A stretch of DNA of 62,962 bases, taken from NCBI GenBank assembly GCA_028695935.1, contig JAQVHY010000001.1, positions 1 to 62,962 on the forward strand, given 5' to 3'. The DNA is from Desulfobacca sp. (lineage in GTDB: Bacteria; Desulfobacterota; Desulfobaccia; Desulfobaccales; Desulfobaccaceae). Below the pieces are notes generated by a model. That model did not search any database. It saw only the letters and a program-made list of their open reading frames with translations, and was not told where the DNA came from. The translations under genes were made by a program, and so were the position numbers. Each line of letters starts with the position of its first letter. The stretch's first letter is position 1. This document shows positions 15,798-54,561 of the stretch, piece by piece.

Positions 15798-17798
15798 TTG
15801 CGTCTCTTATTAAAGTGGCTTTCGTCGCTCACCGGTCGCGCCCTGATCCTGACGCTGGCCGTCTGGAGTGTAATCGGGCTTTTAAGTTTTATGAGCCTGG
15901 GCCAGAACTTGGAAAATCATGCCCTGGATCTGATTTACCGCCTGCGACCTGGCTCCCCTCAGCCCCAGGACCTGCTGATCGTCGGCATTGATGAGCCGTC
16001 TTTTAAGGAGATCGGCCAGCCCTGGCCCTGGCCGCGCCGTATGCATGCCGCTTTGGTGGACAGGCTGGCCCAGATGGGGGCCCGCCTGATCATCTTCGAC
16101 ATTCTTTTTGCTGAACCCACTACCCCGGAAGATGACGAGCTCTTGGCCAGAGCGCTGCACCGGGCCGGAAACGTCATTTTGGGGCAGACTCTAGAGGTCA
16201 CTAAAGACCCCCGTTTTGCCCGGCGAATGTTGATTAAGCCCTTAGAGCCATTACGTCAGGCGGCCCGCGATTTAGGGTTGATGATGGTTACTCCCGATGC
16301 TGATGGGGTGGTGCGCCATTTCTGCCTGCGGCTTGATAAATTGGAGACGCTGGCGGCCGCGGCAGTGCAAAATCTGACGCCGCGGCCAGAGCTGCCGACC
16401 GATCTCTCCGGACTAATTAACTACGTCGGCCCGCCCCGTAGCCTGGACACGGTTTCCTATTATCAGGTGCTGGACCCTGAGCACCCCTTGCCGGAAAACC
16501 GGGTCCGAGGACGACTAGTTCTGGTCGGCTGGAATCTAGAGGCCTCGGTAACCCCGCAGCAGCAGGCGGATTCTTTCAACAATCCTTTTTTTGCCAGCAC
16601 CGGCCAATTTATGTCGGGCGTAGAAATTCACGGACAAATTATCTACACCCTTTTAACTAAAAGCTGGGGTCAGGAGTTGGGGCCAGGACTGCGGTTAGCC
16701 GTTTCCTTTCTGCTTATCGCCTCCTGCTCACTGCTGCTGGGGCGGCTCCGGTTGGCTGCGGCTTTGGCAGTTCTAATGGCCCTAATTTTGCTGACCTGGG
16801 GGACGTCTCTGGGGTTATTCGTCAGCTATCATCTCTGGCTGCCGCCCGTGCTCACCAGCCTGGGCCTGGTTCTAGTCTATCTAGGACATATCAGTTGGAA
16901 ATATCTCTCCGAATTTCGGGAAAAGCGCTGGCTCCGACAGGCATTTGGTCGCTATGTCTCCGCGGCCCTGGTGGAAGCCATTATTGCCCACCCGGAGCGC
17001 CTGGAACTAGGCGGCGAAGAAGCCGAGGTCACCGTGCTCTTTGCCGACCTGGCCGGATTTACCGGGCTGGCCGAGACCATGCCGCCCAAGTCCTTGATTC
17101 AACTGTTGAACGAATATTTCTCCACCATGACCGAGATTATTTTGGCGCGGCACGGCACGCTGGACAAATTTATCGGGGACGCCCTGATGGCGGTATGGGG
17201 GGCGCCGGTGGCCATGGCTGACCATGCCCGCCTGGCCTGTCAAGCCGCTTTAGAAATGCAGGAAGCCATGATCCGGCTTCAGGAAGGTTGGAGTACCCAG
17301 GGCCTGCCCCGGCTGGCAGCCCGGATCGGCCTCCACTCGGGGCGGGTGCTGGCCGGAAACATCGGCTCTAAGGAACGGTTCGATTATACCGTGATGGGGG
17401 ATACCGTAAACCTGGCCTCCCGCCTGGAAGGCGTAAACAAGCTCTATGGGACGGAAATCATCCTGAGCGAGGATACTTATCAGCGGGCCGCCGATTATTT
17501 TCTATTCCGCGCCTTGGACCGCGTCCAGGTCAAAGGTCGCTGGCAACCGGTGACCATTTATGAACTCTTAGGTCCAAGTCCCCAAGAGGGCGAGCCCGGC
17601 TGGTTACAGGCCTTCGCAGCCGGACGGGCAGCCTATTTAGCTCGAAACTGGGATCAGGCCCAAGAGTATTTCCAAGCCGCGCTGCGCCTGAAGCCAGAGG
17701 ACGGCCCCACGCAAGCATTATTAAACCGCTGTCAACAGCACCAGCAACAGCCGCCCGGAGCCGATTGGCAGGGTGTTTTGGTCTTGACAGAAAAGTAG
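15798..17798 (+). CDS. CHASE2 sensor-domain adenylate/guanylate cyclase (class III)
   Basis: TTG start. It has an N-terminal TM segment, a CHASE2 pattern (LLIVGIDEPS...WPWPR..HA.L...L...GA..I.FDILF), three TM segments, and the cyclase core VTVLFADLAGFT...KFIGDALMAVWGAP...GDTVNLASRLE. Confidence 0.88.
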   Translation: MRLLLKWLSSLTGRALILTLAVWSVIGLLSFMSLGQNLENHALDLIYRLRPGSPQPQDLLIVGIDEPSFKEIGQPWPWPRRMHAALVDRLAQMGARLIIFDILFAEPTTPEDDELLARALHRAGNVILGQTLEVTKDPRFARRMLIKPLEPLRQAARDLGLMMVTPDADGVVRHFCLRLDKLETLAAAAVQNLTPRPELPTDLSGLINYVGPPRSLDTVSYYQVLDPEHPLPENRVRGRLVLVGWNLEASVTPQQQADSFNNPFFASTGQFMSGVEIHGQIIYTLLTKSWGQELGPGLRLAVSFLLIASCSLLLGRLRLAAALAVLMALILLTWGTSLGLFVSYHLWLPPVLTSLGLVLVYLGHISWKYLSEFREKRWLRQAFGRYVSAALVEAIIAHPERLELGGEEAEVTVLFADLAGFTGLAETMPPKSLIQLLNEYFSTMTEIILARHGTLDKFIGDALMAVWGAPVAMADHARLACQAALEMQEAMIRLQEGWSTQGLPRLAARIGLHSGRVLAGNIGSKERFDYTVMGDTVNLASRLEGVNKLYGTEIILSEDTYQRAADYFLFRALDRVQVKGRWQPVTIYELLGPSPQEGEPGWLQAFAAGRAAYLARNWDQAQEYFQAALRLKPEDGPTQALLNRCQQHQQQPPGADWQGVLVLTEK

Positions 17799-17803
17799 GG
17801 TTT

Positions 17804-17916
17804 AATACAGTTTTTAGTTTTCTGTTTTCTGTTTTCTGTTTTCTGTTGAAATGCTTAATCTATTCAATGCCTTAAGATATGATTTTGTTACATTTGAATT
17901 AAAACTTGGTATAATT
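17804..17916 (+). repeat. Heptamer-array element, copy A, immediately downstream of the cyclase stop
   Basis: AATACAGTTTT TAGTTTT CTGTTTT CTGTTTT CTGTTTT CTGTTGAAATGCTTAATCT...GTTACATTTGAATTAAAACTTGGTATAAT. It is about 85 percent identical by eye to copy B over the non-heptamer part. Confidence 0.85.
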
Positions 17917-17940
17917 TCTATCAGACACCTTTGTTTTTCC

Positions 17941-17972
17941 CGACCTTAGTGAGGACCAAAAAGGTCGTTTTT
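17941..17972 (+). terminator. Hairpin CGACCTT / AAGGTCG followed by TTTTT
   Basis: Read directly from the sequence. It lies between the convergent cyclase and FecR-TPR genes, downstream of repeat copy A. Confidence 0.45.
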
Positions 17973-17992
17973 CAACAGCCAGTTAGGAGACG

Positions 17993-20900
17993 TCAGAAAT
18001 AAAAGGCCAGCTTAAACAGTATGCGCCGGGCCGGGTACAAGGCATCAAAAGTGACGAACTCTTTCTGAAAATAGAAGTGGCGATCAAAAATGTTGGTAAT
18101 CTCCAGGGAAGCCAGCCCCCGCTTGCCGGGAAATTCATATCCCAGGGTGGCGTCCGCCAATCCATAAAAGCTATCCCCGCGGTCGGTCAGATCCTGCCGC
18201 ACCAGATAAGTGCGAAGCAGCCCCTGCCAGCCGGAGCGGTGCAGAAAGGAGAGTTGTACCAAGGCGCTTAATTCGGAGAAATCATAACTATTCTTGATAC
18301 TGGGGTCAAATTTTTTGCCTATGATTCCGGTGGTTAGACCCCAAGCGGGACTGAGGATGCGGTTAATGGTCAGGCTGGCCGTATAGCGCTTCCAGCCCCA
18401 CCACACCCGGTGCTCTTGTAGTTGATCATCCACCTCATATTGCGGTGTAAAAATGCGATTAGCATTAAGGCGCAGCACCGAGTAAGTCAAGGGGTTCCAT
18501 TGGGCCTCCCAAGCCACCCCGACCTCTCGCACCTCTGAGCCGTCATCGACGTTGATTTGCCACGGGAAGCTGGCAATTTCGGCAGGTACCAAAAGCGGGG
18601 CCAACAGATTGTGCGTGGCCAGAGAACGCTGGAGGACCAAACGCAAGGTATGGTCAGCGTTGACCTGGTAGTTGAGGCCGACGCGGGGATTCCAACTCCA
18701 GAGGGATACTGACTCTGCAAAGCCGGCCCGGGAGCTTTTGGTATTATCGTAAAAAATTCCCAGTTCCGCCAACAAGCTCGGAGTTAACCGCCAGTAATCC
18801 TGGAGATAAAAGCTGTAGGAGCGGTCCGGCGGCCTAAAATTGTAATACAGTGGAATAGAGAAAAGCGGAATGCCAAAGATTGAGTACTCCAGCAGCTCAT
18901 CATATTTATACTTCAAGTGCCCAGAAAAATAATCAAATCCTGCCATCAAGGTATGATTTCCCAGAACCAACTGCTGCTGGAGCTGAATATCATAAAATTC
19001 TCGGTCATAGCGGCGGTTAAGAGTGCTGCTAATGTCCAGAGGGAGGCCGAAAAACGACTCGGTGTCAAGGGTCTTATCCCTGAGATGCCAATCACTGTTA
19101 GCATAGGCTAAATAACTAAGGAGGGTGGCGCGGGGCGTAAAGCGGTGCACGTAGCCTAATTCGTAGAAGCGGGTGCGGAAAAATTGCCTGAGATTAGTAG
19201 AGTTGGCAAAGCCAAAGTCGTTAAGATTGCTGAGATCACCGGCTTCAGAATCGGAATACGAAAATCCCGCCATCACTGAGTTTTTGACCGTCGGCTCCCA
19301 TTTAACCAGGTTAAGAATATTATAAACCTGATCGTCACCGTTCCGGGCCCGGAAACCATCATCCTCCTGATAGCCGCCGAAGACATCGAAGGCCAGCCCT
19401 GGTACCCCGCCGTAAACCTCCAGGCTATGATCCTGGATGGCCCGGGAATGGCCCCAGGTGCCGATTCCACCCTGGGCCTGCACCCGCAGATAGGGCATTT
19501 CAAACATTGGGGTATAATCATTGTAGAGCGTAAAGGTATTTTGGTTGGCCGGGGACAACAGGCGATAGAGTAATAATTCGGAACCAGCCGACCCCAGCCG
19601 CTGGCGGGTCGCCAGGTAGGCACCGGCCAGGAACAGACGGGCTGAACTGTTCAAAGGATCCTTTTTTACCGCGGTGACGGCTTTGCTATACGCCCATTCT
19701 CCTAAACCTAACTGATTATACGCCCGGGCCAAATCGTAGTTGCGCACCGCCAGGTCACGGTCGAGCATCAGGCGGGAGCGGAAAATGGCGTTGTTGTCAT
19801 TCAAGGCTATGGAGCGATTGATCTCCTGGACGGCTTCTCCGGGCCGGTTAAGGTCGGTCAGGGCAATACCTTTATACAAATGCGGGGTAGGGTCGTTCTG
19901 GTCCAGGTTTTGGGCATAGTCATAGACTTCCAGAGCTTTGTCAAAGGCCCGCACCTGATAGAGCGCCTTGCCCAGGGTGGATTGATAGAGGGACACCCTA
20001 GGCTCCAACAGGGTGGCGGTTAACATTTCCGCCAGGGCCTGGCGCGGTTCCCGGTAGCGGAAATAATAGATTCCCAGCCCCAGGTGCGGTTCGCCCAGGC
20101 CGGGATTGGCCCTGATGGCCTGCTCGAAAAATTTCCGGGCCGCCTGATAATCCCGGAAGCCTAGCTTGATAAAGCCGGCCAGGGAGAGAACCTCCCCCTC
20201 CTCGGGGGCCAGCCGACGGGCGGCTTCAATGGTTTTCCAGGCTCGCTCCAGATAATCTCCCCCCAACCAGAGCTTGGCCAGATATACATAAGCCGGGACA
20301 AAGCTGGGATCGGCCTTAATGGCCTTCTCCAGATGGGCTTGGGCCGCCGTATGATTGAAGTGCGCAATCTCTACCAGGGCCATAGTAAGTTGGGCCGCGG
20401 GAGAATCCGGGGCCGGGGCCAAGGTCCGGGAGGCCTCTGCACGCGCCGCGGCTTTGCGGTTTTGCACCAATAACATTTGGGCCAACAAGGCGCGGGCCAG
20501 GGTATAATTTGGCTCTAGGGTCAGGGCACGCTCCAGGCAAGCCTGAGATTCCGCGATGCGCGCGGCCAGCAGGGCAAAATAGCCCTCCATGGTCCATAGC
20601 AAGGGCGAAGGCGGCAGTTGCTGACGCGCGGTTCTTACCAGCTCATAGGCGGGGACGAGTTCGCCCAGGCGGTAGCGGGCCAGGGCCAGGCCCACCAGGG
20701 CCAGGGCCTGCGGCCGCGCTACTTGCTGAAAGGCGCGTCGCGCCTCCAGGGGAGCCTGCTGTTGTAAGTTGATCCAACCCAAGACGGTCAGCGCCTGATC
20801 GTCTCCCGGAGCTTGCTGCAGGATGGCCTGGGTCGCGGCCCGAGCCTCGAAAAGACGCCCCTGGTCATAAAGCATTGCCGCTTCCGCCGCCGAGCCGGAC

Positions 20901-21619
20901 GGCACCCCGGTTTCCATCCCCGGGGGCGCCAAGGGCAGATCCCGATAACTAAAAATCCCGGGATAATAAAGGGACCACTGCACCGCATCCTCGGGTTGCA
21001 GCACCAGCCGCTTGGTCGGCGCCTGGCCGGGACGGGTAAGGCCTTCTTCGCCGGAATTGAGAATCAACTCGCCCTGGGGATTAGCCAGCCGCAGCTTGCC
21101 CTGGAGCAGGATTATTTGGGTGGTGCCGTCCGCCCCAACCCGCAGATTGAACTCGGTACCGCGAATTCCGGCGGTAACCGCCGGCGTTTCCAGCTCGAAA
21201 CGGAAGGTCTCTTTAGTATTCCGCAGCCAGACTTCTCCTTGCGGGACGCGATAGAGGCTGAGGGCCGGTTTTTCCCCTGCCGCGGGGACGATTTCCGCCA
21301 GCCCCAGGCGAGGTGAGGTCATTACACTCTTGAGCTCCAGGACCGTATTTTCGTGAACTTTAAGCTGGCTTTCATCTACACAAAGGATGGCCGCCACCGA
21401 AGCCGGGCCAGTTTTAACCACATCACCGCCAAAAAGGGAGTCGCCGATCTGCGCGGTTTGCCAGCCCCCAGTTGCAGCCCGGCAAAGATTAACCTCGCCC
21501 TGGAGATAAACCAACTTGCCCGCTAAGGCTGAAGCACCAGGAGCAGAATTAACCCTACCGACCAGACCGAAAATTACCATGATCGCCAAAAGCAGCAATC
21601 GCCAGATCTTAAGCCGCAT
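17993..21619 (-). CDS. Giant outer-membrane protein: signal peptide + FecR domain + TPR repeats + C-terminal beta-barrel
   Basis: The ORF is 1208 aa. Signal peptide MRLKIWRLLLLAIMVIFGLVGRVNSA is followed by a FecR-like region (GEVNL.R..GGWQ.A..GD.L..GDVVKTG..S.A.I). About 450 aa of TPR-like helices come next. The C-terminal ~500 aa have alternating beta-strand character and end ...FKLAFYF (terminal Phe OMP signature). Confidence 0.8.
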   Translation of the reverse strand: MRLKIWRLLLLAIMVIFGLVGRVNSAPGASALAGKLVYLQGEVNLCRAATGGWQTAQIGDSLFGGDVVKTGPASVAAILCVDESQLKVHENTVLELKSVMTSPRLGLAEIVPAAGEKPALSLYRVPQGEVWLRNTKETFRFELETPAVTAGIRGTEFNLRVGADGTTQIILLQGKLRLANPQGELILNSGEEGLTRPGQAPTKRLVLQPEDAVQWSLYYPGIFSYRDLPLAPPGMETGVPSGSAAEAAMLYDQGRLFEARAATQAILQQAPGDDQALTVLGWINLQQQAPLEARRAFQQVARPQALALVGLALARYRLGELVPAYELVRTARQQLPPSPLLWTMEGYFALLAARIAESQACLERALTLEPNYTLARALLAQMLLVQNRKAAARAEASRTLAPAPDSPAAQLTMALVEIAHFNHTAAQAHLEKAIKADPSFVPAYVYLAKLWLGGDYLERAWKTIEAARRLAPEEGEVLSLAGFIKLGFRDYQAARKFFEQAIRANPGLGEPHLGLGIYYFRYREPRQALAEMLTATLLEPRVSLYQSTLGKALYQVRAFDKALEVYDYAQNLDQNDPTPHLYKGIALTDLNRPGEAVQEINRSIALNDNNAIFRSRLMLDRDLAVRNYDLARAYNQLGLGEWAYSKAVTAVKKDPLNSSARLFLAGAYLATRQRLGSAGSELLLYRLLSPANQNTFTLYNDYTPMFEMPYLRVQAQGGIGTWGHSRAIQDHSLEVYGGVPGLAFDVFGGYQEDDGFRARNGDDQVYNILNLVKWEPTVKNSVMAGFSYSDSEAGDLSNLNDFGFANSTNLRQFFRTRFYELGYVHRFTPRATLLSYLAYANSDWHLRDKTLDTESFFGLPLDISSTLNRRYDREFYDIQLQQQLVLGNHTLMAGFDYFSGHLKYKYDELLEYSIFGIPLFSIPLYYNFRPPDRSYSFYLQDYWRLTPSLLAELGIFYDNTKSSRAGFAESVSLWSWNPRVGLNYQVNADHTLRLVLQRSLATHNLLAPLLVPAEIASFPWQINVDDGSEVREVGVAWEAQWNPLTYSVLRLNANRIFTPQYEVDDQLQEHRVWWGWKRYTASLTINRILSPAWGLTTGIIGKKFDPSIKNSYDFSELSALVQLSFLHRSGWQGLLRTYLVRQDLTDRGDSFYGLADATLGYEFPGKRGLASLEITNIFDRHFYFQKEFVTFDALYPARRILFKLAFYF

Positions 21620-22047: not shown

Positions 22048-22063
22048 TGGCAACAGATTTGCA
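22048..22063 (+). promoter_or_regulatory. Sigma-54 (-24/-12) promoter TGGCAA-CAGAT-TTGCA
   Basis: GG and GC have the canonical spacing and flanks (consensus TGGCAC-N5-TTGCW). It lies ~175 nt upstream of the ATG at 22239. Confidence 0.75.
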
Positions 22064-22238
22064 CAACAATAAATTAATGAATTTCGGGATCGGTATGAAA
22101 GGAGGTGAGAGGTTAGAGACCAACAGCACTCCCGCGTTTAAATTAAGCGGGGGTGTTCTGTGTGTAAGGTATTGCCAATAATTGGGTTGGAGTATCCTAA
22201 AGGATTAAGGGCAATAACGCTTAATTGGAGGTCAAAAC

Positions 22239-23726
22239 ATGGCGGAAAGAAAAGAAATTGAGATAACTTGCCGGGCTGACACCCTTGATCTGATGCATCC
22301 TGACATCAGGCCCTGGCCAGTCACCCCGCCGCCGCCGCGCGAAGAGGTAGATAAAGTCTATGCCCGGCGGAAAGCGACGGATTTCGGCAACTGGTGTGAG
22401 GATAACCTCAGATATGAACTGGCCTTTGGCAAACCCGAGGCCCTACAAGGCATGAAGTTCCTGTGCGTCGGTATGTGGCGCATGGGCAACATGTTCTGTG
22501 CTGGCCTGCTGTGTGAGGCCGGGGCCGAGGTGATTAAGATCGAGCCGCCCGGGGGCGACCCGCTGCGCCAATTAACCCCGTTTGGTCGGGAAGAGTACAT
22601 GCTCGAATCCAAGATCACCGGGGAAAAATGCGGCCTCGACTTCCTGCATGAAATGCGCGGCCAGAAATCGGTTACCCTGAATCTGGAGACCGAGGAAGGC
22701 CGGGATATCTTCCGGGCCATGTGCAGCCAAGTGGACGGGGTCATCGATGAAATGCCGGCGGGCTATATGGACGGCCTGGGCATCGGCTATCGGCACATCT
22801 CCAAGCTGTATCCTGGATTGGTGTGGTGCAATATTGCGGTTCGGGGCACCTGGGGACCCTACAAAGACAAGGTGTCTAAGTTCGGGCAATGGACCCTGGA
22901 ACCCTTCGGGGGCTGCGCCAATGCCTTTATCCACAACACCGGCTTCCCGCAGGATCAATTGCCTCGAGGCCGGGGTGGTGACCCCACCCGTTCCGGCGTC
23001 TGGTTTGCCGACTATGTCGCCGGCGAGCAGGCTGCTAATACTCTGCTGGCCGCCTTATATTGGAGAAATGAATTAGGCGGCACCGGTCAGTTCTGCGAGG
23101 TCACCGGGGCTGAGTCCCAGATGGACATCCTGGACTTTGATATTAGCTGGTACGGCTTCAATGCCAGCATCAAGGCCCGTACCGGCGCTTGGGACCCCAA
23201 CCTCAACCAATATGAGTGGAACCCCTGCCGGGACGGCTACATGATGATCGGCGGGCAGACCGACCGGCTGTGGTATCGCATCGGTATGTGTATTGAGCGC
23301 GACTTCCCGCAGTTCGGGCGGCTGATCCACGAAGACCCCATCCTCAAAGAGATGGGAGCCCGGAATGCCCTGGAAATGCTGACCAAAACCTATACCCTGA
23401 CCACCCGCTGGCTCAGAGACATCAACCGGATTGAAGCGGAACAGAAACTGTTGGAGTACGAAATCGCTGCCGGTCCGGTGCTGTTCATCGACGAAGTCTC
23501 CGAGTTCCCCCACTTCAAGTATCGTCCCTGGGTGTGCACCATTGATACCGATCATTACGGCACGCTGTTGTTCTCGGTGCCCCCGAACAACTATCAGATG
23601 CGGACCCCGCACCGGGTCAAAGTATTAGGCCGGCCGTTGGGCTATGATACTTATGAAGTCATGATGAAGTACGCCGGGATCGGTCAGACCAGAGTAAACG
23701 AACTCAAGGAAAAGGGGGTTATCTAA
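22239..23726 (+). CDS. Family III (CaiB/BaiF) CoA-transferase-like protein, long divergent paralog 1 (putative non-canonical subunit)
   Basis: [42 protein letters not shown] matches the family III N-terminal signature (LxxLGAEVIKxE.P..GD..R). The ORF is 495 aa. The usual YD..aqA.sG...tG Asp context is replaced by [17 protein letters not shown]. Confidence 0.75.
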
Positions 23727-25141
23727 TGGCGAAGGACCCAAGAGTATGTCGGCTGGAGGAGCTGGACGGCCCCAAAAGCAAACAAGAACTCGACGAAATG
23801 AAGATGCCCTATGAGGATTACTGCCGGGCCGCCTTCGCGCCGGGCGGGGAGTTCTCCAAGCCCATGTCGCTTAAAGGCATCCGCTGGATGAGCACCACCA
23901 TGTATATCTTCACGCCCCATTCGGTTTCTAACCTGGCCGAACTGGGGGCCGAGGTCATCAAAGTCGAGATGCCCCGCATGGGTGACCCCATGCGGCACTG
24001 TGCGCCGTTCAATGAGACCTACCTCTATCCCTTGCATGACACCCGGCCGATGACCGGGACCGGCATGGGTTATTTGAACGCTAATCCCAATGAATATCAC
24101 ATCTCCATGGACTATCACCTGGACGAAATGAAGGAAGCCTTCTATCGTCTGGTAAAGATGTCCGATGGGCTGACTGAGTGCTATCGGCCAGGGACCTTTG
24201 ACCGCTGGAAACAGAGCTACCGCTACCTGATTGAGATGAACCCCCGGTTTATCTATGTTTGGGGCGGCGGCTTCGGTTACGGGCCCAAGGTCTTCGGCGG
24301 CTCCTATGATATCCTAGGTCAGGCCCACGCCGGGCTGGCTTCGGTGACTGGAATGCATCCCTTTATGGGCGGCCACTGCACCAAGCACTCCAACTGGTGT
24401 ATTGACTGGTACTCCGGCACCCAGATCACCTTCGGCATCCTGGCCGCGATCCACTGGCGGCGGAAAACCGGCCTGGGCACTATGATCGAATTCTCCCAGG
24501 TGCAGGCCGCTACCCGTTGTCTGGGTTATGCCGCGCCGCTCTATGGCCGCTTTGGCATCGTCCGCCAGCGCTGGGGCAACTGGGATACCCAGCTCTGCGT
24601 CCATGGCATCATCCTGGCCGGCAAGTCCGCCTACCCGGATGCCATCAACCCGCAGGACCGGCTGGATGCCCGCTACGTCATGGTCTCGGCCTTCAACGAC
24701 CCGGACTTCAAAGAGCTGTGCGAGGTCATCAAGAAGCCCGACCTCTACAGCCGTTATCAGCAGCATAAGGATCGGGTTGAGGGCGAGGCGCAGGTGGAAA
24801 TCTACGCCGCCCTGGAGGAATGGGCTAAAGATAAGTCCAGGACCGACGTCGTCCGGATTCTGCAAGGCGCGGGTCTCTTGGCCGAGCCGGTGTTGAATGA
24901 CCGGGAGGTCTATGAACTAGAACACTGGCGCCGGCGCGGCACTATCCGGTGGCAGGATGATCCCATTTTCGGCGATGTCATGGTAATGGGGTCTTACGGC
25001 GCCGGCTTGATGTCCAAGACTCCCCGCCGCCTCTACTGGATCTGGCGGCCGGTGGGCGCTGACAACGTCAAGATTTACCACGAGCTGCTCGGGTATCCAA
25101 CAGCCAAGATCGAAGAGTGGTACTCCAAGGCCATGATCTAA
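23726..25141 (+). CDS. Family III (CaiB/BaiF) CoA-transferase-like protein, paralog 2 (retains catalytic-Asp context)
   Basis: [41 protein letters not shown] and [17 protein letters not shown] are present. The ORF is 471 aa. Its start overlaps the upstream stop (TAATG). Confidence 0.78.
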
Positions 25142-25155
25142 AAGGAGGGAGCGCT

Positions 25156-25641
25156 GTGTGTGATATTATTTGGTGTAAAAAAATGGTGGACGGGAAACCG
25201 TGCAACACCGTGAATTACCTGGATCCGTATTGCTTCTGGAACTGGAAGGGCAAGGTCAACTGCGCCGAATGTGGCACGGTTTACTTCATCCACATGATCC
25301 AGGGCCATATGTATATCGGTCCGGAAGAGAGACCTGGTGAGAAGCCCGATACCAGCCCCCTCTACGCGGATAAGCCCCTGGATGGCTACTCCAACTATTC
25401 CCCGGGGGTCGAAGGCCGGACTCGGCCCTTCGAGTGCCTGCCGCGGCATATCTACTTGGGAGTGCCGGATATGGTGAAGTTCAGCATCCGCGGCCGCCCG
25501 GTCCGGGGATGGCGTCCGCAGCCGCCGGACGGGGGCATCGCCGGTAGCTATCTGTTCAATTGGGATCTGAAGCGGCTCTCTCCCGATGTCTATGAGGAGT
25601 ATCTTCGGAAACTCAGGGACGGGGAAGTTTCGGACTGGTAA
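25156..25641 (+). CDS. Small Cys/Trp-rich protein (162 aa from GTG), unknown family
   Basis: GTG at 25156 lies 7 nt after AAGGAGGGA. The ORF track start at 25117 overlaps the upstream gene. Cys pattern: C-x4-C-x8-C-x9-C-x9-C-x2-C. Confidence 0.6.
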   Translation: MCDIIWCKKMVDGKPCNTVNYLDPYCFWNWKGKVNCAECGTVYFIHMIQGHMYIGPEERPGEKPDTSPLYADKPLDGYSNYSPGVEGRTRPFECLPRHIYLGVPDMVKFSIRGRPVRGWRPQPPDGGIAGSYLFNWDLKRLSPDVYEEYLRKLRDGEVSDW

Positions 25642-25672
25642 TATGGAGCGGTGATAAGGAAAGGAGTGTTAC

Positions 25673-25909
25673 ATGAGCGGGACTGAAGGATTAACCCCAC
25701 GCCAATTCTTAGATAAAGTCCTGGAGCCGGATAAAGAATCGGATCATATCTGCTGGCAGTGCGAGCATCTCAAACCGGTGATTAGAGGTTCCAGTTTTCC
25801 GCCCGCCGACATCATTGGTTGGTGTATGAAAATCCACTGGCCGCATTTTTGGTGTGTAGCGGACTTTAACGTGGTCAAAAAATGTTACGCCTTTGAGCAG
25901 AAGAAGTAG
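25673..25909 (+). CDS. Small Cys/Trp-rich protein (78 aa), unknown family
   Basis: ATG follows a GGAAAGGAG SD. Motifs are HICWQCEH ... WCMKIHWPHFWCVADFNVVKKCY. Confidence 0.55.
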   Translation: MSGTEGLTPRQFLDKVLEPDKESDHICWQCEHLKPVIRGSSFPPADIIGWCMKIHWPHFWCVADFNVVKKCYAFEQKK

Positions 25910-25910
25910 C

Positions 25911-26243
25911 ATGGAAGACAACGTCCGAAAAGAGCTGGATGTTCTGAAGACCATGGTCCTCAACTGGAAGCGGAGTTATCTCGGGTTTGCCACCCCTGAG
26001 GGCGGAGATGAATACCTGGCGGAGGAATTCGCCGCCGAGATTGCTGAGCACATCTCTCCCTTTGTGATGCGGTTGTATGCCTGTAAATATCTCACCCCGG
26101 ATGAGGTCAATGATTTCATGGACGTCTGCTACAATGAGGTGGAGGACCTGCGCCAAACTCTGGAAGCCGTGGCGGCCCCACCTCAGAAAAAAGGAATATG
26201 GATTAAGTTTGTCGAGCACACCAAGGAGGTTTTGCGGAAATAA
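25911..26243 (+). CDS. Small helical acidic protein (110 aa), unknown family
   Basis: ATG lies 2 nt after the upstream TAG. An alternative TTG at 25893 would overlap the upstream gene. It is packed tightly on the same strand. Confidence 0.5.
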   Translation: MEDNVRKELDVLKTMVLNWKRSYLGFATPEGGDEYLAEEFAAEIAEHISPFVMRLYACKYLTPDEVNDFMDVCYNEVEDLRQTLEAVAAPPQKKGIWIKFVEHTKEVLRK

Positions 26244-26342
26244 GATCAGCCTTGAAGACAGGCCTCGAGCTTATTTAGCCGCCAAACCTCTGATGGTAGT
26301 AGGACCGAATAACTTGGGATTTAAAATATAAGGAGGGTAAGC

Positions 26343-26768
26343 ATGCCAGCAAAATGTCGTGTTGGTGTATGCGGATTCGACCCCATGCTCGTCAAAGGAT
26401 ATGTCAAGACCGGGTTTAGAGCCTTGTGGTGGCATATACCTGATGAGCTCTATGAGGAATTTAAAGTTAAGCCCAATGATAATATTTCAGGCAAGATCCT
26501 GAAGGTTTACACCGGCAAGACCGGGCAGGCGACCCATGAGCCCAATGAGACCTTCCACTGGAAATTTTCTCGGGAGTCGGGCCTGGCGGTGTTGCTGCCC
26601 CCAGAAATCATCACCAAATATGAGCTCACCGAGTTCCATTTCCTAGAACTGGTGATTGAGACTATTAATGAGCAGCCGGTCTATGCTGGCGAAGAAAAGA
26701 TGAGCACCAAGTGGTGGCCGGAAGACAAGATGAAACTGGGGTTCACCCTGGATTATATCCCGGCCTAA
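26343..26768 (+). CDS. Small protein (141 aa), Trp-rich, unknown family
   Basis: ATG follows a TAAGGAGGG SD. It is the last gene before the terminator at 26791-26827. Confidence 0.6.
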   Translation: MPAKCRVGVCGFDPMLVKGYVKTGFRALWWHIPDELYEEFKVKPNDNISGKILKVYTGKTGQATHEPNETFHWKFSRESGLAVLLPPEIITKYELTEFHFLELVIETINEQPVYAGEEKMSTKWWPEDKMKLGFTLDYIPA

Positions 26769-26790
26769 CTCAACTAATAGTATAACCTAG

Positions 26791-26827
26791 TCCCCCTTCC
26801 CATATTATGGGGAGGGGGATTTTTTTA
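26791..26827 (+). terminator. Rho-independent terminator (TCCCCCTTCCC-ATATTAT-GGGGAGGGGGA + TTTTTTTAT)
   Basis: An 11-bp GC-rich stem (one G.T pair) and a T-run are read directly. It lies 23 nt after the stop at 26768. Confidence 0.85.
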
Positions 26828-26893
26828 TCGGTTCTCACAACCTTGCGGTCAATTAGATGATGATGGTCTTTTCGATGGTATTGAACAGTTTTT

Positions 26894-27078: not shown

Positions 27079-28290
27079 ATGACCGACAGAGCTGAAGGCC
27101 AAGACCCGCGAGAATCGCTAGAGGGAGCGCAACCGGAGGAGCCTCTACACCCGGGCTGGCAAACCTTGGCCCAGGTATTTCAGAGCACCGAGCCATTTTG
27201 GGAAAGATTTCTTTATCTGCTGGGCTATGATTATTCTTGCAACGTTTATGTCATCAGAGGCGACTATTTGAGCGTGGTGGATCCGGGCAACGACTACACC
27301 ATGTTCATGGATCTGTTTCGCCTCGGTTACAAACCCACTGAGGTTAAAAAGATCGTTCTCACCCACGGGCACCGTGACCATGCCATGGGGGCCTTTGAGT
27401 TTATCAGATCGTACCCTAGCATTACCCAAACCGGCGGCTTTGAGCTCATCTTGCACCAGGAAAGTCCGGAGGTGCTGAAAAAAACCATCACCGATTTCGG
27501 CTGCCGCTATACCGAAGTCAAAGGTGGAGAAAGATTAGAGCTGAGCGGCCTGGAATGGGAAGTGATTTATACCCCCGGCCATACCGTTGACGGGATCACC
27601 CTTTATCATGCCCCCTCGAAAACTGCCATTACCGGTGATACGGTGTTGCCGCATGCCATGGCCGGACCGGACCAGAAGGCCGGGGGGCGGCTAGACCATT
27701 ATTTATTTGGAGTAAAAACCCTGCTCAAAAAAGATATTGCCCATGTCTTGCCGGGACATGGCCTACCGGTAAAGGATCTGGGCAATTTGGTGGTCGAACA
27801 GACCTACGAGAGCCTGATGCTCGAAGTTATTGGGGTGAAGGACAAAATTCCCTGGGTGGATGGCGCGGCCAAACTGGTTCAAAAGGGCCTGCTGGAAGAG
27901 GCGATATTTTGCTGCGGTAAAGAACTGGCCCGCGAACCGGAAAATATCACTGCCCTACAATTAAAGGCCTTCTGTCTGATCGATCTGAACCGGTGTGAGG
28001 AAGCGGTAGCCCTGCTTGAAAAAATCCTGGCGCAGCAACCAGACAATGCCCACGCCCTGACCGGCATGGGTCAGGCTTTACTGGGGCAAGGCCAACATGA
28101 CCAGAGCATCGCATATTTTAACCGGGCTTTAAATCTCAACCCCGACCTGAAAGAGGCCCAAATTTTTAAAGGTATGGCTTTATATCTGGCCGGGCGCTAT
28201 GACGAAGCCATGGATATCGAGGCCTTCAGCACCGAATTTGTCAGCCGCTTTAAGGAGCAATTGGCTGCCAAGGTCCAGCCGACAGAATAA
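27079..28290 (+). CDS. Metallo-beta-lactamase-fold hydrolase fused to C-terminal TPR repeats
   Basis: The HxHxDH motif is THGHRDHAMG, followed by TPGHT and GDT. The C-terminal ~130 aa hold TPR-like repeats (ALQLKAFCLIDLNRCEEAVALLEKILAQQPDNAHAL...). Confidence 0.8.
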   Translation: MTDRAEGQDPRESLEGAQPEEPLHPGWQTLAQVFQSTEPFWERFLYLLGYDYSCNVYVIRGDYLSVVDPGNDYTMFMDLFRLGYKPTEVKKIVLTHGHRDHAMGAFEFIRSYPSITQTGGFELILHQESPEVLKKTITDFGCRYTEVKGGERLELSGLEWEVIYTPGHTVDGITLYHAPSKTAITGDTVLPHAMAGPDQKAGGRLDHYLFGVKTLLKKDIAHVLPGHGLPVKDLGNLVVEQTYESLMLEVIGVKDKIPWVDGAAKLVQKGLLEEAIFCCGKELAREPENITALQLKAFCLIDLNRCEEAVALLEKILAQQPDNAHALTGMGQALLGQGQHDQSIAYFNRALNLNPDLKEAQIFKGMALYLAGRYDEAMDIEAFSTEFVSRFKEQLAAKVQPTE

Positions 28291-29654: not shown

Positions 29655-31331
29655 TTAGGCCAGTCTGACCTTGTTGGGATACTCGTCGTAGAGCCGACGC
29701 ATATCCTTTTTGATCATCTTGCCGGTAGGAGTGCGCGGAATGGCTTCCAGGAACACCACTTCCCGGGGCAGCTTGTATTTGGCTAATACGTCAACCGTGG
29801 AATTAACAATTTCTCTGGCCAATTCTTCCGACGGCTTATGGCCAGGTTCCAGTTCGACCATGGCGGTGGTCCGCTGGCCGATGATTTCATCAGGAATACC
29901 GACCACGGCCGCGTCCCGGACGGCAGGATGGCGGATCAGGGCGTCTTCAATCTCGCTGGGGGCCAGACGGAAGCCGGAAGACTTGATCATATCATCTTCC
30001 CGGGCCTGGAAGTAGATATAGCCTTCTTTATCCATGTAAACGGCATCGCCCATCATATTATAGCCGTCCTTGATGCCCTTCTTCATGGTCTTCAAGAGTT
30101 TGTTTTCCTGGATGTACGGCTTCCAGTAGATCGTGCCGGTGGGGCCTTTGACCAGCATGCTGCCCACTTCGCCCGGGGAGCATTCTTTGCCGTCAACATT
30201 GACCACTTTGACCTCAAAACCAGGCAGCGCCTTACCGATGGAGTCGGGCACGGGGAACTTGCCCATGGTGTTCGAGGTTACCAGGTGGACCATTTCGGTC
30301 GCCCCCAGCCCTTCCCAGATGGGCATGCCGGTCTTGTCTTGCCAGGCGGCCAGGGTCTTACCGGTCAGGGCATCGCCACCAGTGGTGTACATCCGCACAC
30401 TGGAGCGGTCATAATCATCAAAATTGGGCATTTCCAGCAGCTTCCGGTAGGCAGTGGGTAAGCCGGTGACCACATTAACCTTGTGTTTCTGGATAATACC
30501 CATCATGTCGTCGGGGGTGAACTTGGGTAACAGCGAGATGGTGGCCCCCGCCGCAAAGGGGATTAAGCAGAAAGTGCCATAGCCCGCGGCAAAGGAGACC
30601 GGCGCCGAACCGCCGAGCACTTCTCCGGGTTGGAGCTTATAGACATATTTATTAACTAAATGGGATTCGACCAGCACCTCTTTGACAAAATGGACGCAAC
30701 CCTTAGGCTGTCCGGTAGTCCCGGAGGTATAAAGAATGACGCCGATGTCATCCATATTGAGTTTATAGTTTTCAAAAGTATCAGAAGCTTTAGCCATCAG
30801 CTCTTCAAAGCACAGATATCCCTTGGCCTTGACTGCATCGGCAGCGCCTCCCACTACGATGATCTTAGTGGAAAACTGGAATTCGTGCTTCCCCTCTTCT
30901 ACCGCTGGCATCAGGGGGGCGCTGACCGCAAACGCCGCAAATTCAGCATTATTTAAAGTAAAAGAGATCTCTTCCTTAGCCCATAGCGGAGATACTGGCA
31001 CCGGGATGGCCCCGACTTTCTGAATGCCAAAATTGATGGCTACCGCCTGGGGAGTGTTGGTCATCCGGATGCCCACCCGGTCCTGAGCTACCACGCCCAG
31101 CTCTTTCAGAATATTGGCAACCTTGTTAGCATTTTGCATAAGTTGTTTATAAGTGACCTTCGTGTCGCCAAACAGAATGGCAACGTTATCGCCTCGACCC
31201 TCTTTGACATGCTTATCGAGAAATTCCTCGGCAATGTTTGCCTGGTCAGGCAGTTTGAACTCTTCCGGTATTGGTTCATTAGGCCAGAGTTCTTTGGGGG
31301 GTAAATAATCTGCAGGAATCTCTTTCTTCAT
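29655..31331 (-). CDS. AMP-forming acyl-CoA synthetase (benzoate/aryl-carboxylate-CoA ligase-like)
   Basis: The AMP-binding motif is LYTSGTTGQPKG, followed by YGTFC.., TGD and a C-terminal PRTPTGK.IK. The ORF is 558 aa with an AAGGAGG SD. Confidence 0.85.
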   Translation of the reverse strand: MKKEIPADYLPPKELWPNEPIPEEFKLPDQANIAEEFLDKHVKEGRGDNVAILFGDTKVTYKQLMQNANKVANILKELGVVAQDRVGIRMTNTPQAVAINFGIQKVGAIPVPVSPLWAKEEISFTLNNAEFAAFAVSAPLMPAVEEGKHEFQFSTKIIVVGGAADAVKAKGYLCFEELMAKASDTFENYKLNMDDIGVILYTSGTTGQPKGCVHFVKEVLVESHLVNKYVYKLQPGEVLGGSAPVSFAAGYGTFCLIPFAAGATISLLPKFTPDDMMGIIQKHKVNVVTGLPTAYRKLLEMPNFDDYDRSSVRMYTTGGDALTGKTLAAWQDKTGMPIWEGLGATEMVHLVTSNTMGKFPVPDSIGKALPGFEVKVVNVDGKECSPGEVGSMLVKGPTGTIYWKPYIQENKLLKTMKKGIKDGYNMMGDAVYMDKEGYIYFQAREDDMIKSSGFRLAPSEIEDALIRHPAVRDAAVVGIPDEIIGQRTTAMVELEPGHKPSEELAREIVNSTVDVLAKYKLPREVVFLEAIPRTPTGKMIKKDMRRLYDEYPNKVRLA

Positions 31332-33454: not shown

Positions 33455-33470
33455 AGCAACCAGTGTGCCA
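33455..33470 (-). promoter_or_regulatory. Sigma-54 (-24/-12) promoter TGGCAC-ACTGG-TTGCT
   Basis: The minus strand reads TGGCACACTGGTTGCT, a perfect match to TGGCAC-N5-TTGCW. It lies ~180 nt upstream of the porin ATG (33274). Confidence 0.8.
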
Positions 33471-33853: not shown

Positions 33854-34483
33854 CTAGGCGGTTTTGAGTTTGCGCGGTGGAACCTGCCGGGCGATGGCTT
33901 CCTGGCCGAGTTGGAAGGCCCGCAGATTGGTGTCCACATGCTTCGGGGGAGTGCGGGTAGCGATGACCCCGGCGATGATTTTTCCAGGAAAAGGCAGACG
34001 GCCGGTTTGGGCCAGTGCTCCCAACAGCACCATATTGACGGCCAGGGAACTGCCGGCCTGCTGAGCCAAGGTCTCGGCGCCCAGGGTCAAAAGCTGCCCC
34101 ACTTGCGGGGCAATCAACTCCATTAGGCGTTCGACCGCGGGGTAATGAGCCTGACCGATGGCCACGGAGTAGGGGATGATGGCGGCGGTGTTGGTAATTA
34201 CCACGGTTTGGGAGTGACAGCGGCTTAAGGCCCGGAAGGCCTCCAAGGCCTCAAAACTCACCACTATATCGGCTTCTCCAGGCGAAATAATCGGGCTGGC
34301 CAGTGCCCCGATAATCACCGTCGAAGTCACTACCCCGCCCCGTTGAGCCATACCATGAGTCTCGCTGACCAGAACCGCATAGCCTGCGGTCATGGCCGCC
34401 TCCCCCAACACTCTGGAGGCCAGCAAGGTTCCCTGACCGCCAACCCCGGTAAAATAAATTTTTAGTTGAACTGAGTCATTCAT
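33854..34483 (-). CDS. iorB: Indolepyruvate:ferredoxin oxidoreductase subunit beta
   Basis: KIYFTGVGGQGTLLASRVLGEAAM...ETHGMAQRGG. The ORF is 209 aa and lies downstream of iorA. Confidence 0.88.
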   Translation of the reverse strand: MNDSVQLKIYFTGVGGQGTLLASRVLGEAAMTAGYAVLVSETHGMAQRGGVVTSTVIIGALASPIISPGEADIVVSFEALEAFRALSRCHSQTVVITNTAAIIPYSVAIGQAHYPAVERLMELIAPQVGQLLTLGAETLAQQAGSSLAVNMVLLGALAQTGRLPFPGKIIAGVIATRTPPKHVDTNLRAFQLGQEAIARQVPPRKLKTA

Positions 34484-34489
34484 GACACT

Positions 34490-34516
34490 GATCTATTTGA
34501 TCTATTTGATCTATTT
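34490..34516. repeat. Perfect 9-bp tandem repeat GATCTATTT x3 abutting the iorB start codon
   Basis: Read directly from the sequence. It ends 6 nt from the iorB ATG (minus strand: AAATAGATC x3 - AGTGTC - ATG). Confidence 0.9.
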
Positions 34517-34562
34517 GGGAAATTATCTTCTTACGCCCGACCTGGGTTAAAGTTACCAAGTC

Positions 34563-34685: not shown

Positions 34686-34735
34686 CAAAGGTTTAGGATG
34701 GATACTAGATAGTAAACTGACTCCCCCTATAGACG

Positions 34736-54557: not shown

Positions 54558-54561
54558 CTAG

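Follow-up and report, generated by a model that had tools for sequence, protein, structure and literature searches.

The genes g1 to g6 make up the central part of a conserved module that comprises at least seven genes and occurs in many anaerobic bacteria and archaea; it was identified here in a stretch of 62,962 nucleotides (the window). Two of the genes encode clear but very distant family III CoA-transferases, four encode small proteins and the seventh encodes an MBL-fold hydrolase fused to TPR repeats (MBL-TPR). With about even confidence we read these genes, probably together with a nearby AMP-forming ligase, as an inducible multi-subunit acyl-CoA-handling system that would catabolise a monocarboxylic acid. 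To our knowledge none of the seven module proteins has ever been studied.

Table 1. Features of the module and its surroundings in the window
Feature	Position	Strand	Basis
Sigma-54-type -24/-12 promoter element TGGCAACAGATTTGCA	22048-22063	+	Exact consensus match
Leader, about 165 nt, promoter to g1	22064-22238	+	Comparison with L007, Rfam search
g1, family III CoA-transferase paralog, 495 aa	22239-23726	+	Pfam PF02515, E 3e-56
g2, family III CoA-transferase paralog, 471 aa	23726-25141	+	Pfam PF02515, E 2e-64
g3, small protein and proposed subunit, 161 aa, GTG start	25156-25641	+	Conserved Cys, AF2 model
g4, His/Cys-rich protein, 78 aa	25673-25909	+	Invariant His/Cys set
g5, 110-aa protein	25911-26243	+	ATG one base past g4 stop codon
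g6, 141-aa protein	26343-26768	+	AF2 model, Foldseek
Intrinsic terminator closing the g1-g6 transcription unit	26789-26828	+	15-bp stem, T-run
MBL-fold hydrolase fused to TPR repeats, 403 aa, seventh module gene	27079-28290	+	Pfam Lactamase_B and TPR
AMP-forming acyl/aryl-CoA ligase, 558 aa	29655-31331	-	Homology to ligases near other clusters

Checks of open reading frames, motifs and terminator confirmed the six-gene string described in the first-pass annotation, in which a -24/-12 motif is followed by six close-packed genes and a strong intrinsic terminator (8 of the 15 stem pairs are GC). The stop and start codons of g1 and g2 overlap as TAATG, with one base common to both reading frames, and the length of the first small protein, given earlier as 162 aa, was corrected. 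Three of the small ORFs had been credited with good Shine-Dalgarno sequences, which were found as AAGGAGGG before g3 and g6 and as AAAGGAG before g4; inspection of the region 5' of the g5 ATG revealed none.

The conservation of gene order proposed as a check in that annotation was found in 72 of 86 related (clade-1) loci, belonging to Thermodesulfobacteriota, Acidobacteriota, Chloroflexota, NC10 and several archaeal lineages, with median intergenic gaps of -23 to +18 nt. The six-gene core is thus conserved, but as a complete unit it was drawn too small: the MBL-TPR gene comes next, in the same order, in 61/86 loci, which span several bacterial phyla and four archaeal lineages, and the module is therefore larger than first reported. 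Given that the small ORFs are conserved across phyla at median identities of 47-77%, they are real genes, and g3, g4 and g2 encode the most conserved proteins of all (75-77%). The taxonomic distribution is patchy and resembles horizontal transfer; no compositional anomaly was found at the module. No characterised system with a matching gene neighbourhood was found, which agrees with the first-pass annotation.

A Pfam profile search matched both g1 and g2 to CoA_transf_3, with domains starting only at residue 69 in g1 and residue 49 in g2. This indicated that the N-terminal extensions and extra length are real, in agreement with the earlier description of oversized, divergent paralogs. All NCBIfam equivalogs scored far under their cut-off against g1 and g2 (108-130 bits versus 700). 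The two proteins are full-length paralogs with 24% identity and a common N-terminal extension, which in g1 comprises 68 aa; g1 also carries an invariant insertion (SKFGQW) and Glu221 at the nucleophile position. The catalytic-Asp motif of g2, SYDILGQA, contains Asp195, which aligns with the Asp of SUGCT; across 68 clade-1 orthologs six of its eight positions, Asp included, never vary, and nearly all sequences of the second and more distant clade (clade 2) retain the motif. In a BLASTP comparison of the two paralogs, and likewise in the stretch aligned in the first-pass annotation, Glu221 of g1 sits opposite Asp195 of g2. The corresponding column is E in 45, D in 11 and S in 1 of 57 g1 orthologs, and clade-2 g1 proteins have a canonical D-x3-Q-A Asp there. 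Based on this alignment and on both sets of orthologs, g1 retains an acidic residue at the nucleophile position and is not clearly degenerate, so that the suggested pairing of a catalytic with a degenerate subunit is not supported.

The small proteins g3 to g6 have no match in Pfam, NCBIfam or PDB sequences. The earlier statement that they could not be placed in any family is accordingly correct for sequence, but g3 and g4 have metal-site-like patterns and g6 a predicted barrel; similarly, the reported Cys spacings are present, although only some of those Cys are conserved. In g3 the invariant residues are C7, C16, C36, C39 and C94, and the AF2 model (pLDDT 80.7) predicts an N-terminal four-Cys zinc-ribbon-like beta domain followed by an extended C-terminal part; with this model Foldseek returned no PDB match with E < 1. 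Relatives of g3 number only 58 among 1.84 billion representatives. In every one of the 86 clade-1 loci, barring cut contigs or rearrangement (Thermoplasmata), the gene comes after one CoA_transf_3 gene or a pair of them, and the same was seen in clades 2 and 3 in loci with enough flank. This rarity and constant adjacency, together with the high conservation of g3, g4 and g2, would fit obligate subunits. In g4, H25, C27, C30, C51, H55 and C71 are invariant, and a weak profile match (E 0.003) with the common motif G[WY]CxKxxWP links it to a clade-2 counterpart. No clade-2 counterpart of g5, the least conserved member (median 47% identity across loci), or of g6 was detectable by sequence, and clade 2 has unrelated small proteins in their place. 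The g6 model (pLDDT 85.8, pTM 0.80) predicts a swapped-hairpin (AbrB/PhS018-like) barrel with an N-terminal hairpin carrying the invariant C10; its top Foldseek match was PhS018 (2glw; E 0.01, probability 1.00, target-normalised TM 0.62). Homologs of g6 fall into 587 clusters, and the named ones among 120 listed are all 'hypothetical protein'.

Sigma-54 control of g1-g6, as put forward in the first-pass annotation, is plausible. The element TGGCAACAGATTTGCA is positioned 191 nt 5' of the g1 ATG, and TGGCA-N6-TTGCW occurs three times in the window compared with 0.17 expected (three or more in 1/100 shuffles). One of the two other sites precedes a fliL-to-flhA flagellar operon, a type of operon that many bacteria control through sigma-54. 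The closest relative, L007, keeps the motif at the same distance (-188) with diverged flanking DNA, a weaker element TGGTCAAGGGACTGCA is present at -190 to -195 in six Syntrophobacteraceae-type loci, and a PAS/sigma-54 activator gene lies directly upstream in 32/86 related loci. Against this, most related loci showed no canonical motif 5' of g1 in a simple scan. Among the annotated ORFs of the window no activator gene was found when, as the sole check made, the clade-1 activator served as query. The leader matched no Rfam family; it shares a strongly conserved 3' half with L007, in which a complementary pair TATTGCC...GGGCAATA is retained.

The metal motifs of MBL-TPR (THxHxDH, H, D, H) are conserved in 64 orthologs, and its closest named families are glyoxalase II (GloB, E 7e-12) and AHL lactonases, with scores far below threshold. 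Such genes also occur beside a third variant of the module (L176). In the window the gene sits behind the strong terminator, which counts against the proposal. The ligase is probably associated with the module, judging from its recurrence near related clusters: the window protein shares 57% identity with the ligase encoded close to the cluster elsewhere in clade 1, a match lies near the cluster in 12/86 clade-1 loci, Archaeoglobus among them, and ligase genes also adjoin it in the Thermoplasmata and Syntrophobacteraceae loci L087 and L088. In 45/84 clade-2 loci an ortholog with about 45% identity is part of the operon, where it comes immediately after the small ORFs. In this window, the ligase is encoded on the opposite strand from the module, which also counts against the proposal.

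The best PDB matches of the ligase are anthranilate- and benzoate-CoA ligases, and this aryl-CoA-ligase-like character, together with UbiU/UbiV-like U32 pairs, hints at an aromatic substrate. Conflicting with these are aliphatic hints, namely a lactate-type transporter and neighbours from beta-oxidation and the 4-hydroxybutyryl-CoA-dehydratase family. An SfMCT-like monocarboxylate MFS transporter adjoins the module in 16 clade-2 loci and in Archaeoglobus, and genes for ADP-forming acyl-CoA synthetase, beta-oxidation, aldehyde dehydrogenase and aldehyde oxidoreductase (AOR) are recurrent neighbours. No CoA-ester-transforming enzyme was found to be conserved with the module in the clade-1 and clade-2 neighbourhoods, which leaves the purpose of a CoA cycle without explanation and counts against the proposal.

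In the system that we propose, g1 and g2 would form an interlocked heterodimer as the core, in which g2 would supply the canonical Asp nucleophile and g1 a Glu (Asp in some orthologs), so that the dimer would probably have two active sites that differ from each other, instead of a live and a dead one. The g3 and g4 proteins may be metal-binding subunits (most likely Zn) clamped onto the enlarged transferases, with g5 and g6 as putative accessory or assembly subunits. An imported monocarboxylic acid would first be activated by the AMP-forming ligase, which would prime the system, and the transferase would then recycle CoA by passing it from a product thioester on to new substrate, in the manner of the CaiB/CaiC and FldA-type cycles. 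MBL-TPR might dock via its TPR repeats and hydrolyse a thioester or related ester. Transcription would be sigma-54-dependent and switched on by a PAS-domain activator, whose gene adjoins the operon in many relatives and not in this window.

It is possible, if somewhat doubtful, that g1, with its Glu/Asp site and SKFGQW insertion, and the His/Cys proteins g3 and g4 jointly build a second and novel catalytic centre. There the CoA thioester that g2 produces would undergo, for example, dehydration, isomerisation or loss of a ring or alpha substituent, and the product would be channelled, much as phenyllactate dehydratase has FldA as a built-in transferase. Such a centre would agree with the lack of a separate conserved CoA-ester-converting enzyme, with a conservation of g3 and g4 equal to that of the catalytic subunit g2, with the invariant g4 pattern H-x-C-x2-C...C-x3-H...C, which resembles a functional metal site more than it does a plain ribbon, with the position of the SKFGQW insertion close to the active site and with a g3 fold that has no PDB match. 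However, redox, radical or cofactor-binding domains are absent from the module, ribbons with four Cys usually have a structural role and g5 and g6 are not conserved between clades. The replacement of g5 and g6 by unrelated proteins in clade 2 would also suit an unlikely arrangement in which g3 to g6 are co-transcribed helpers rather than subunits (g6 and the zinc-ribbon proteins acting as nucleic-acid-binding regulators or chaperones) and the enzyme itself is a family III CoA-transferase of the ordinary two-subunit type, as are BbsEF, SmtAB and the phthalate enzyme. Binding of nucleic acids is common among zinc ribbons, the predicted g6 fold is shared by AbrB, MazE and MraZ, DNA-binding proteins with a swapped-hairpin barrel, and there are known heteromeric family III enzymes that lack accessory proteins. 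On the other hand, the fixed order, tight spacing and very high cross-domain conservation of g3 and g4 are atypical for regulators, g3 relatives occur only beside CoA_transf_3 genes wherever neighbours are readable, a dedicated sigma-54 activator already provides regulation, and we know of no demonstrated DNA binding by PhS018.

The version of the first-pass annotation, with g2 alone catalytic and g1 a purely structural, degenerate partner, appears improbable. The Glu of the window g1 lies in LEPFGG, which departs from Y-D-x3-Q-A, a HMMER alignment to PDB entry 4ed9 places Trp218 in the Asp column and one ortholog has Ser at the nucleophile position; yet the BLASTP pairing of E221 with D195, the acidic residue in 56/57 orthologs and the canonical clade-2 residue all argue against degeneration, as do the ungapped spacing between E221 and the TG motif downstream of it, which equals the Asp-to-TG spacing in 4ed9, and the retained N-terminal CoA-binding signature. 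Furthermore, Glu is the nucleophile in family I CoA-transferases. Highly improbable is a non-metabolic role in defence, stress or signalling, with the MBL domain as a nuclease or cyclic-nucleotide hydrolase. Anti-Pycsar_Apyc1 is among the precomputed Pfam matches of this domain and the patchy spread, which resembles horizontal transfer, would suit such a role, but PADLOC found no defence-protein match for g1-g6 and only generic TPR-repeat models for MBL-TPR (E 0.002-0.004), the composition is not anomalous and the adjoining genes have metabolic functions (ligase, monocarboxylate transporter, ADP-forming acyl-CoA synthetase and beta-oxidation genes).

The proposed multi-subunit system resembles known ones in its parts. 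The predicted g6 fold is like that of PhS018 of Pyrococcus horikoshii at residues of about 25-110, and the g6 sequence has a duplicated beta-alpha-beta element like AbrB-type barrels; however, there is no sequence similarity to PhS018 (15% identity), the Foldseek E is only 0.01, and g6 has an N-terminal Cys-containing hairpin and a C-terminal tail in addition to this fold. MBL-TPR shares the full HxHxDH...H...D...H ligand set with glyoxalase II/MBL thioesterases and lactonases but scores far under the family cut-off (45 bits versus 200.8), and neither its C-terminal TPR fusion nor its fixed partnership with a CoA-transferase operon has been described for these families. Ligase-primed CoA recycling is exemplified by CaiB/CaiC (carnitine) and by FldA of the phenyllactate dehydratase FldABC, which likewise have a family III transferase genetically linked to an AMP-forming ligase and, in Fld, physically part of a larger enzyme complex. 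These systems carry a CoA-ester-converting enzyme (CaiD/CaiA; FldBC with activator), whereas none is conserved with g1-g6, where the partners are orphan small proteins. In BbsEF (benzylsuccinate; PDB 9fn0), SmtAB (succinyl-CoA:malate) and SptAB (succinyl-CoA:phthalate), two adjacent PF02515 paralogs form an interlocked heteromer for anaerobic acid catabolism, as would be expected for g1 and g2, and g1 is closer to chain 9fn0_A than to 9fn0_B while the reverse applies to g2. Unlike these enzymes, whose subunits measure about 400 aa and which lack accessory proteins, g1 and g2 have N-terminal extensions, insertions and a non-canonical loop before the CoA signature, and are accompanied by four small proteins and MBL-TPR.

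The first two genes of the six-gene operon, g1 and g2, encode unambiguous members of the CaiB/BaiF (family III) CoA-transferases, with Pfam PF02515 matched at 191.5 bits by g1 (profile positions 1-347 of 366) and at 218.3 bits by g2 (positions 1-358) against a cut-off of 23.3. The PF02515 domain starts only at residue 69 in g1 and residue 49 in g2, which confirms the claim of the first-pass annotation that the two proteins are oversized paralogs of this family. Neither protein reached the NCBIfam equivalog models for formyl-CoA, mesaconate, glutarate, carnitine and oxalate transferases. The cut-offs of these family III models are 400-750 bits, and the best scores (108.5 bits for g1 and 130.3 bits for g2) were obtained with NF041294, whose cut-off is 700, all other models scoring lower. 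The best PDB matches had E-values of 1e-22 to 1e-23 and, judged by sequence, both proteins are remote from every characterised enzyme. g1 and g2 are 24% identical over their full length including the N-terminal extensions and are therefore ancient paralogs. The extension of g1 holds a conserved proline-rich motif, RPWPVTPPP (residues 24-32, 22308-22334); that the TPR domain of the downstream metallo-beta-lactamase-fold/TPR protein (MBL-TPR) could dock on this motif is pure conjecture.

The catalytic Asp of g2 (SYDILGQA) aligns with the Asp of SUGCT and fits the (G)YD-x3-QA context, in which the Asp of family III enzymes forms the acyl-aspartyl anhydride. Six of the eight positions, the Asp included, are invariant among 68 g2 orthologs from clade 1 (the 86 related loci with a module like that of the window), and nearly all of 43 sequences from clade 2, a more distant version, retain the motif. 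The partner g1 had earlier been read as degenerate, and this reading was not supported. BLASTP of g1 against g2 places Glu221 opposite Asp195, Glu221 lies at the canonical ungapped distance from the TG motif that follows it, the column is acidic in 56 of 57 orthologs (E 45, D 11, S 1; the Asp occurs in archaeal, Desulfosoma and CSP1-8 loci among others), and the clade-2 g1 motif NLDPTAQA is the canonical D-x3-Q-A. It follows that g1 keeps an acidic, though non-canonical, residue at the nucleophile position. An HMMER local alignment of g1 to 4ed9 instead puts Trp218 at the Asp column and needs two gaps to do so; the SKFGQW insertion before Glu221 is clade-specific, with its G, Q and W invariant. 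On these alignments, two non-equivalent active sites are more likely than a working site paired with a dead one. A function of g1 as a CoA-dependent racemase was also considered and rejected, since conservation is lacking at H186, the one nearby His that was checked in place of the catalytic His of racemases.

The small proteins g3-g6 had been described as belonging to no recognisable family, and the database searches agreed with this: Pfam and NCBIfam gave no match with E-values up to 1 other than a meaningless 0.09 for g4, and PDB sequences gave nothing meaningful when searched with profiles of g3, g4 and g6. In g3, C7, C16, C36 and C39 as well as C94 are invariant; the spacing is that of a CxxC...CxxC ribbon in most orthologs, and the window copy has a 6-residue insertion. 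The Cys set previously noted for g4 was upheld in part, H25, C27, C30, C51, H55 and C71 being invariant but C61 variable. Both g3 and g4 thus carry what looks like a zinc-ribbon or rubredoxin-like pattern (four Cys or Cys/His in two knuckles). The AF2 model of g3 (pLDDT 80.7) begins with a domain of about 90 residues that is rich in beta structure, after which the chain is extended and predicted with less confidence, and a Foldseek search with this model against PDB gave no match with E < 1. For g6 (pLDDT 85.8, pTM 0.80) the best structural match, with the predicted model as Foldseek query, was PhS018 (2glw; E 0.01, probability 1.00), with TM values of 0.43 when query-normalised and 0.62 when target-normalised; PhS018 is a single-chain swapped-hairpin barrel of the AbrB type. 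The protein g5 is poorly conserved. Homologs of g3 formed 120 clusters (46-84% identical) and those of g6 587 clusters; 'hypothetical protein' was every source name present for g3 and the sole name among the 120 clusters listed for g6.

With g3 as marker, a pattern scan of a collection with one genome per species yielded 215 g3-encoding stretches. In Desulfobacca/Desulfobaccales g3 is 94-95% identical to that of the window; other bacterial carriers are Syntrophobacteraceae, the ethane-consortium partner Eth-SRB2, the isolate Desulfoferrobacter suflitae DRH4, Terriglobia, Anaerolineae, Methylomirabilis, Binatia and others, and the archaeal carriers are Archaeoglobus, Thermoplasmata, Methanocellales and Hydrothermarchaeota. 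The small proteins are co-inherited with g1 and g2 across domains of life. The 86 clade-1 loci were compared by mechanical ORF calls (longest ORFs) and BLASTP against the window proteins, so that the counts are approximate and some N-termini over-extended. The order g1-g2-g3-g4-g5-g6 followed by MBL-TPR, all on one strand, was found at 61/86 loci. Another 15 loci, partly contig ends, lacked the MBL-TPR match alone, 11 of them in strict g1-g6 order, giving a fixed g1-g6 order at 72/86 loci overall; the remaining loci are truncated or have small inversions. The unit of six genes previously proposed is accordingly conserved in its order but too short. In the window the MBL-TPR gene (27079-28290, +) lies behind the terminator and has its own sigma-70-like site; despite the terminator, it is taken to belong to the module given the synteny at 61 loci. 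Median identities to the window were 68% (g1), 76% (g2), 77% (g3), 75% (g4), 47% (g5), 65% (g6) and 54% (MBL-TPR), and the median gaps inside g1-g6 ranged from -23 to +18 nt at the 86 loci. Gene fusions among g1-g6 were sought and only over-extended ORFs or frameshifts were found. Two whole-module copies on different contigs of one genome were seen in several genomes (L019/L021 in Eth-SRB2, L011/L012, L010/L074 and L017/L058), a pattern typical of substrate-specialised catabolic paralogs. A full-text literature search found no description of the g1-g6 cluster, and no defence protein was matched in PADLOC, where MBL-TPR alone gave matches, to generic TPR models.

When 1.84 billion representatives were searched exhaustively by HMMER with a profile of g3, only 58 proteins were found. 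More distant g3 relatives (33-38% identical) define clade 2, with 407 metagenome-contig stretches. Their g3' is accompanied by g1' (41% identical) and g2' (49%) and followed by three small ORFs of 64-73, 110-126 and 123-138 aa; a gene for MBL-TPR is absent. The first small ORF and g4 have the motif G[WY]CxKxxWP in common (hhalign E 0.003), and the other two showed no similarity to g5 or g6 by hhalign. Directly after the small ORFs, on the same strand, an AMP-forming ligase about 45% identical to the acyl/aryl-CoA ligase of the window (29655-31331, -) was present at 45/84 loci. A third variant, L176, combines two transferases, a g3-like gene and two MBL-TPR genes, and is surrounded by genes for acyl-CoA dehydrogenase, hydroxyacyl-CoA dehydrogenase, enoyl-CoA hydratase, thiolase, a 4-hydroxybutyryl-CoA-dehydratase-family protein and an aldehyde oxidoreductase, a context that hints at short aliphatic hydroxy acids as substrates.

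Among solved structures, anthranilate- and benzoate-CoA ligases come closest to the window ligase. A ligase match lies within 10 kb at 12/86 clade-1 loci, including the closest relatives of the window and Archaeoglobus, and ligase genes also stand beside the cluster in a Thermoplasmata locus (L087) and a Syntrophobacteraceae locus (L088). U32-family proteins resembling UbiU, UbiV and TrhP, which are oxygen-independent hydroxylases, occur at 13/86 clade-1 loci, in L087 (three copies) and as pairs in clade 2, and these might add an oxygen-independent hydroxylation step; ligase and U32 proteins together hint at aromatic substrates. One to three U32 copies and DUF169 were seen beside the module and its ligase in L087 (126-4804), L001 (14191-18913) and clade-2 loci such as L152 and L100, and the U32/DUF169 recurrence spans archaea and bacteria. 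Recurrent near the module are further an ADP-forming acyl-CoA synthetase, an alpha/beta hydrolase, an aldehyde dehydrogenase and DUF169, and a receiver-like protein of 145 aa follows MBL-TPR at 27/86 loci. An MFS transporter above or near the NCBIfam cut-off for SfMCT, an L-lactate monocarboxylate transporter, was found at 16 clade-2 loci and in Archaeoglobus, which points to a monocarboxylate. SfMCT also binds thiosalicylate (PMC6573034). The characterised SfMCT does not itself adjoin the module in Syntrophobacter-like genomes, where close homologs lie elsewhere. On a 2.9 Mb metagenome contig (L175, 7908-11263) an 83% identical SfMCT homolog directly follows a two-subunit family I CoA-transferase, near methylmalonyl-CoA mutase and MeaB; the locus suggests that transporters of the SfMCT type serve physiologically to supply CoA-transferases. 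In the window itself, a CHASE2-adenylate/guanylate cyclase (666 aa, +) faces a 1208-aa protein (-) at 15798-21619, immediately upstream of the module; the 1208-aa protein is an unusual fusion of FecR, many TPR repeats and a TonB-dependent-receptor-like beta-barrel. The downstream genes at 33854-36601 (-), 36902-37675 (+) and 44450-46306 (-) include indolepyruvate/pyruvate:ferredoxin oxidoreductase-type subunits (POR_N/TPP_enzyme_C, POR), an alpha/beta hydrolase and a B12-binding radical SAM protein.

Genes of the operon and transcription signals in the window (gene coordinates and lengths from the ORF table).
Feature	Position	Strand	Description
-24/-12 element	22048-22063		TGGCAACAGATTTGCA; exact match to TGGCAC-N5-TTGCW, GG-N10-GC; upstream of g1
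g1	22239-23726	+	495 aa
g2	23726-25141	+	471 aa; TAATG overlap with g1
g3	start 25156	+	161 aa; GTG start; preceded by AAGGAGGG
g4	25673-25909	+	78 aa
g5	start 25911	+	ATG start one base past the g4 stop; without SD sequence
g6	26343-26768	+	141 aa
Terminator	26789-26828		15-bp GC-rich hairpin and T-run; closes the g1-g6 unit
-24/-12 site before porin gene	33455-33470	-	TGGCACACTGGTTGCT; exact match; about 180 nt upstream of Porin_O_P-family gene 31652-33274 (-)
Sigma-54 consensus site 3	50206-50221	+	40 nt before flagellar operon 50261-57879 (+), fliL-fliM-fliN-fliO-fliP...flhB-flhA

The -24/-12 motif, the packed genes, the TAATG overlap and the terminator were all found in the window where the first-pass annotation had placed them. 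The gene g3 is likewise real but its previous length of 162 aa is one residue too long, the GTG start agreeing with the MCDIIWC N-terminus of every homolog. For the word TGGCA-N6-TTGCW, 0.17 occurrences would be expected in the window and three are present. The closest relative, L007 (g1 98% identical), retains the -24/-12 bases at an unchanged distance, and the bases next to them have diverged. RpoN dependence is common among flagellar operons and, because one copy of the motif precedes an operon of this type, the motif looks meaningful in this organism. The ligase gene is the next same-strand gene downstream of the Porin_O_P gene, and porin and ligase might form a second sigma-54 unit in the same regulon as g1-g6; a common upstream activator word of at least 10 nt was sought between the g1 and pre-porin sites and none was found. 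Compared with a coding control, the regions upstream of g1 at 66 related loci were not enriched for -24/-12 sites in a simple consensus scan, with conserved sites only in the closest relative and one Syntrophobacteraceae group. A sigma-54 activator (PAS-PAS-AAA+-HTH_8) lies directly upstream on the same strand at 32/86 related loci; no such activator was found among the annotated ORFs of the window, where the clade-1 activator as query had no match. The 3' half of the g1 leader (22096-22238) is almost identical in L007 despite the diverged promoter flanks, and this half contains complementary TATTGCC and GGGCAATA segments that could pair near the SD sequence; no conservation was seen for an upstream ORF of 28 codons that starts at 22095. 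Rfam found no riboswitch or other RNA in the leader or the whole window except one tRNA, and the base composition was unremarkable.

Family III CoA-transferases are obligate interlocked dimers, and g1 and g2 would for this reason be expected to form a heterodimer, here with two different active sites. Since g3 and g4 are conserved like g2 and found only in this context, they are most simply explained as obligate, probably Zn-binding, subunits on the enlarged g1/g2 scaffold. By analogy with the CaiB/CaiC and Fld systems, a first thioester made by the ligase would prime the system, after which CoA would be recycled by the transferase. The MBL-TPR hydrolase, whose metal site is intact, may hydrolyse a thioester or ester and dock via its TPR repeats.

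The principal rival explanation assigns a catalytic part to the same small proteins: g1, g3 and g4 would together make up a second and novel catalytic centre with the thioester as its substrate, a reading that we regard as unlikely. We also hold it doubtful that g1-g6 is as a whole a new type of metal-containing multi-subunit enzyme on a family III scaffold, which would both make and transform a CoA thioester by means of two non-equivalent sites and a His/Cys metal centre of g3/g4, and so fill an unassigned step in the anaerobic breakdown of a common monocarboxylic acid. If true, the acid could be a 2-hydroxy acid or an aromatic acid with an ortho substituent, to give two examples, and such an enzyme would span sulfate reducers, syntrophs, anaerobic Acidobacteriota and archaea.

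The catalytic core belongs to a known family and, as far as sequence comparison goes, what is new is the module with its four orphan protein families. The module is widespread in organisms of carbon turnover in anoxic sediment, peat and soil, among them Syntrophobacteraceae, Desulfobaccales, Eth-SRB2, sulfur-cycling Acidobacteriota and Archaeoglobi, and cultured carriers are Desulfoferrobacter suflitae DRH4 and possibly a Desulfosoma isolate. If g3-g6 prove to be subunits, the module would represent a new CoA-transferase architecture and probably an unrecognised catabolic route. In the benzene degrader BzS1, a two-transferase cluster with dehydratase and ligase is described, and the available part of that account mentions no small subunits (PMC13416013). 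The heteromeric family III enzymes BbsEF, SmtAB and SptAB resemble g1/g2 in having two paralogous subunits of the known family. In these enzymes, however, two subunits of about 400 aa suffice, compared with 495 and 471 aa here, and conserved operon partners are absent, whereas g3-g6 keep a fixed order at 72/86 loci and are joined by MBL-TPR at 61/86. For none of the three is there a report of accessory subunits, N-terminal extensions or a partner like MBL-TPR; the module described here has the last two and, in its small proteins, predicted accessory subunits.
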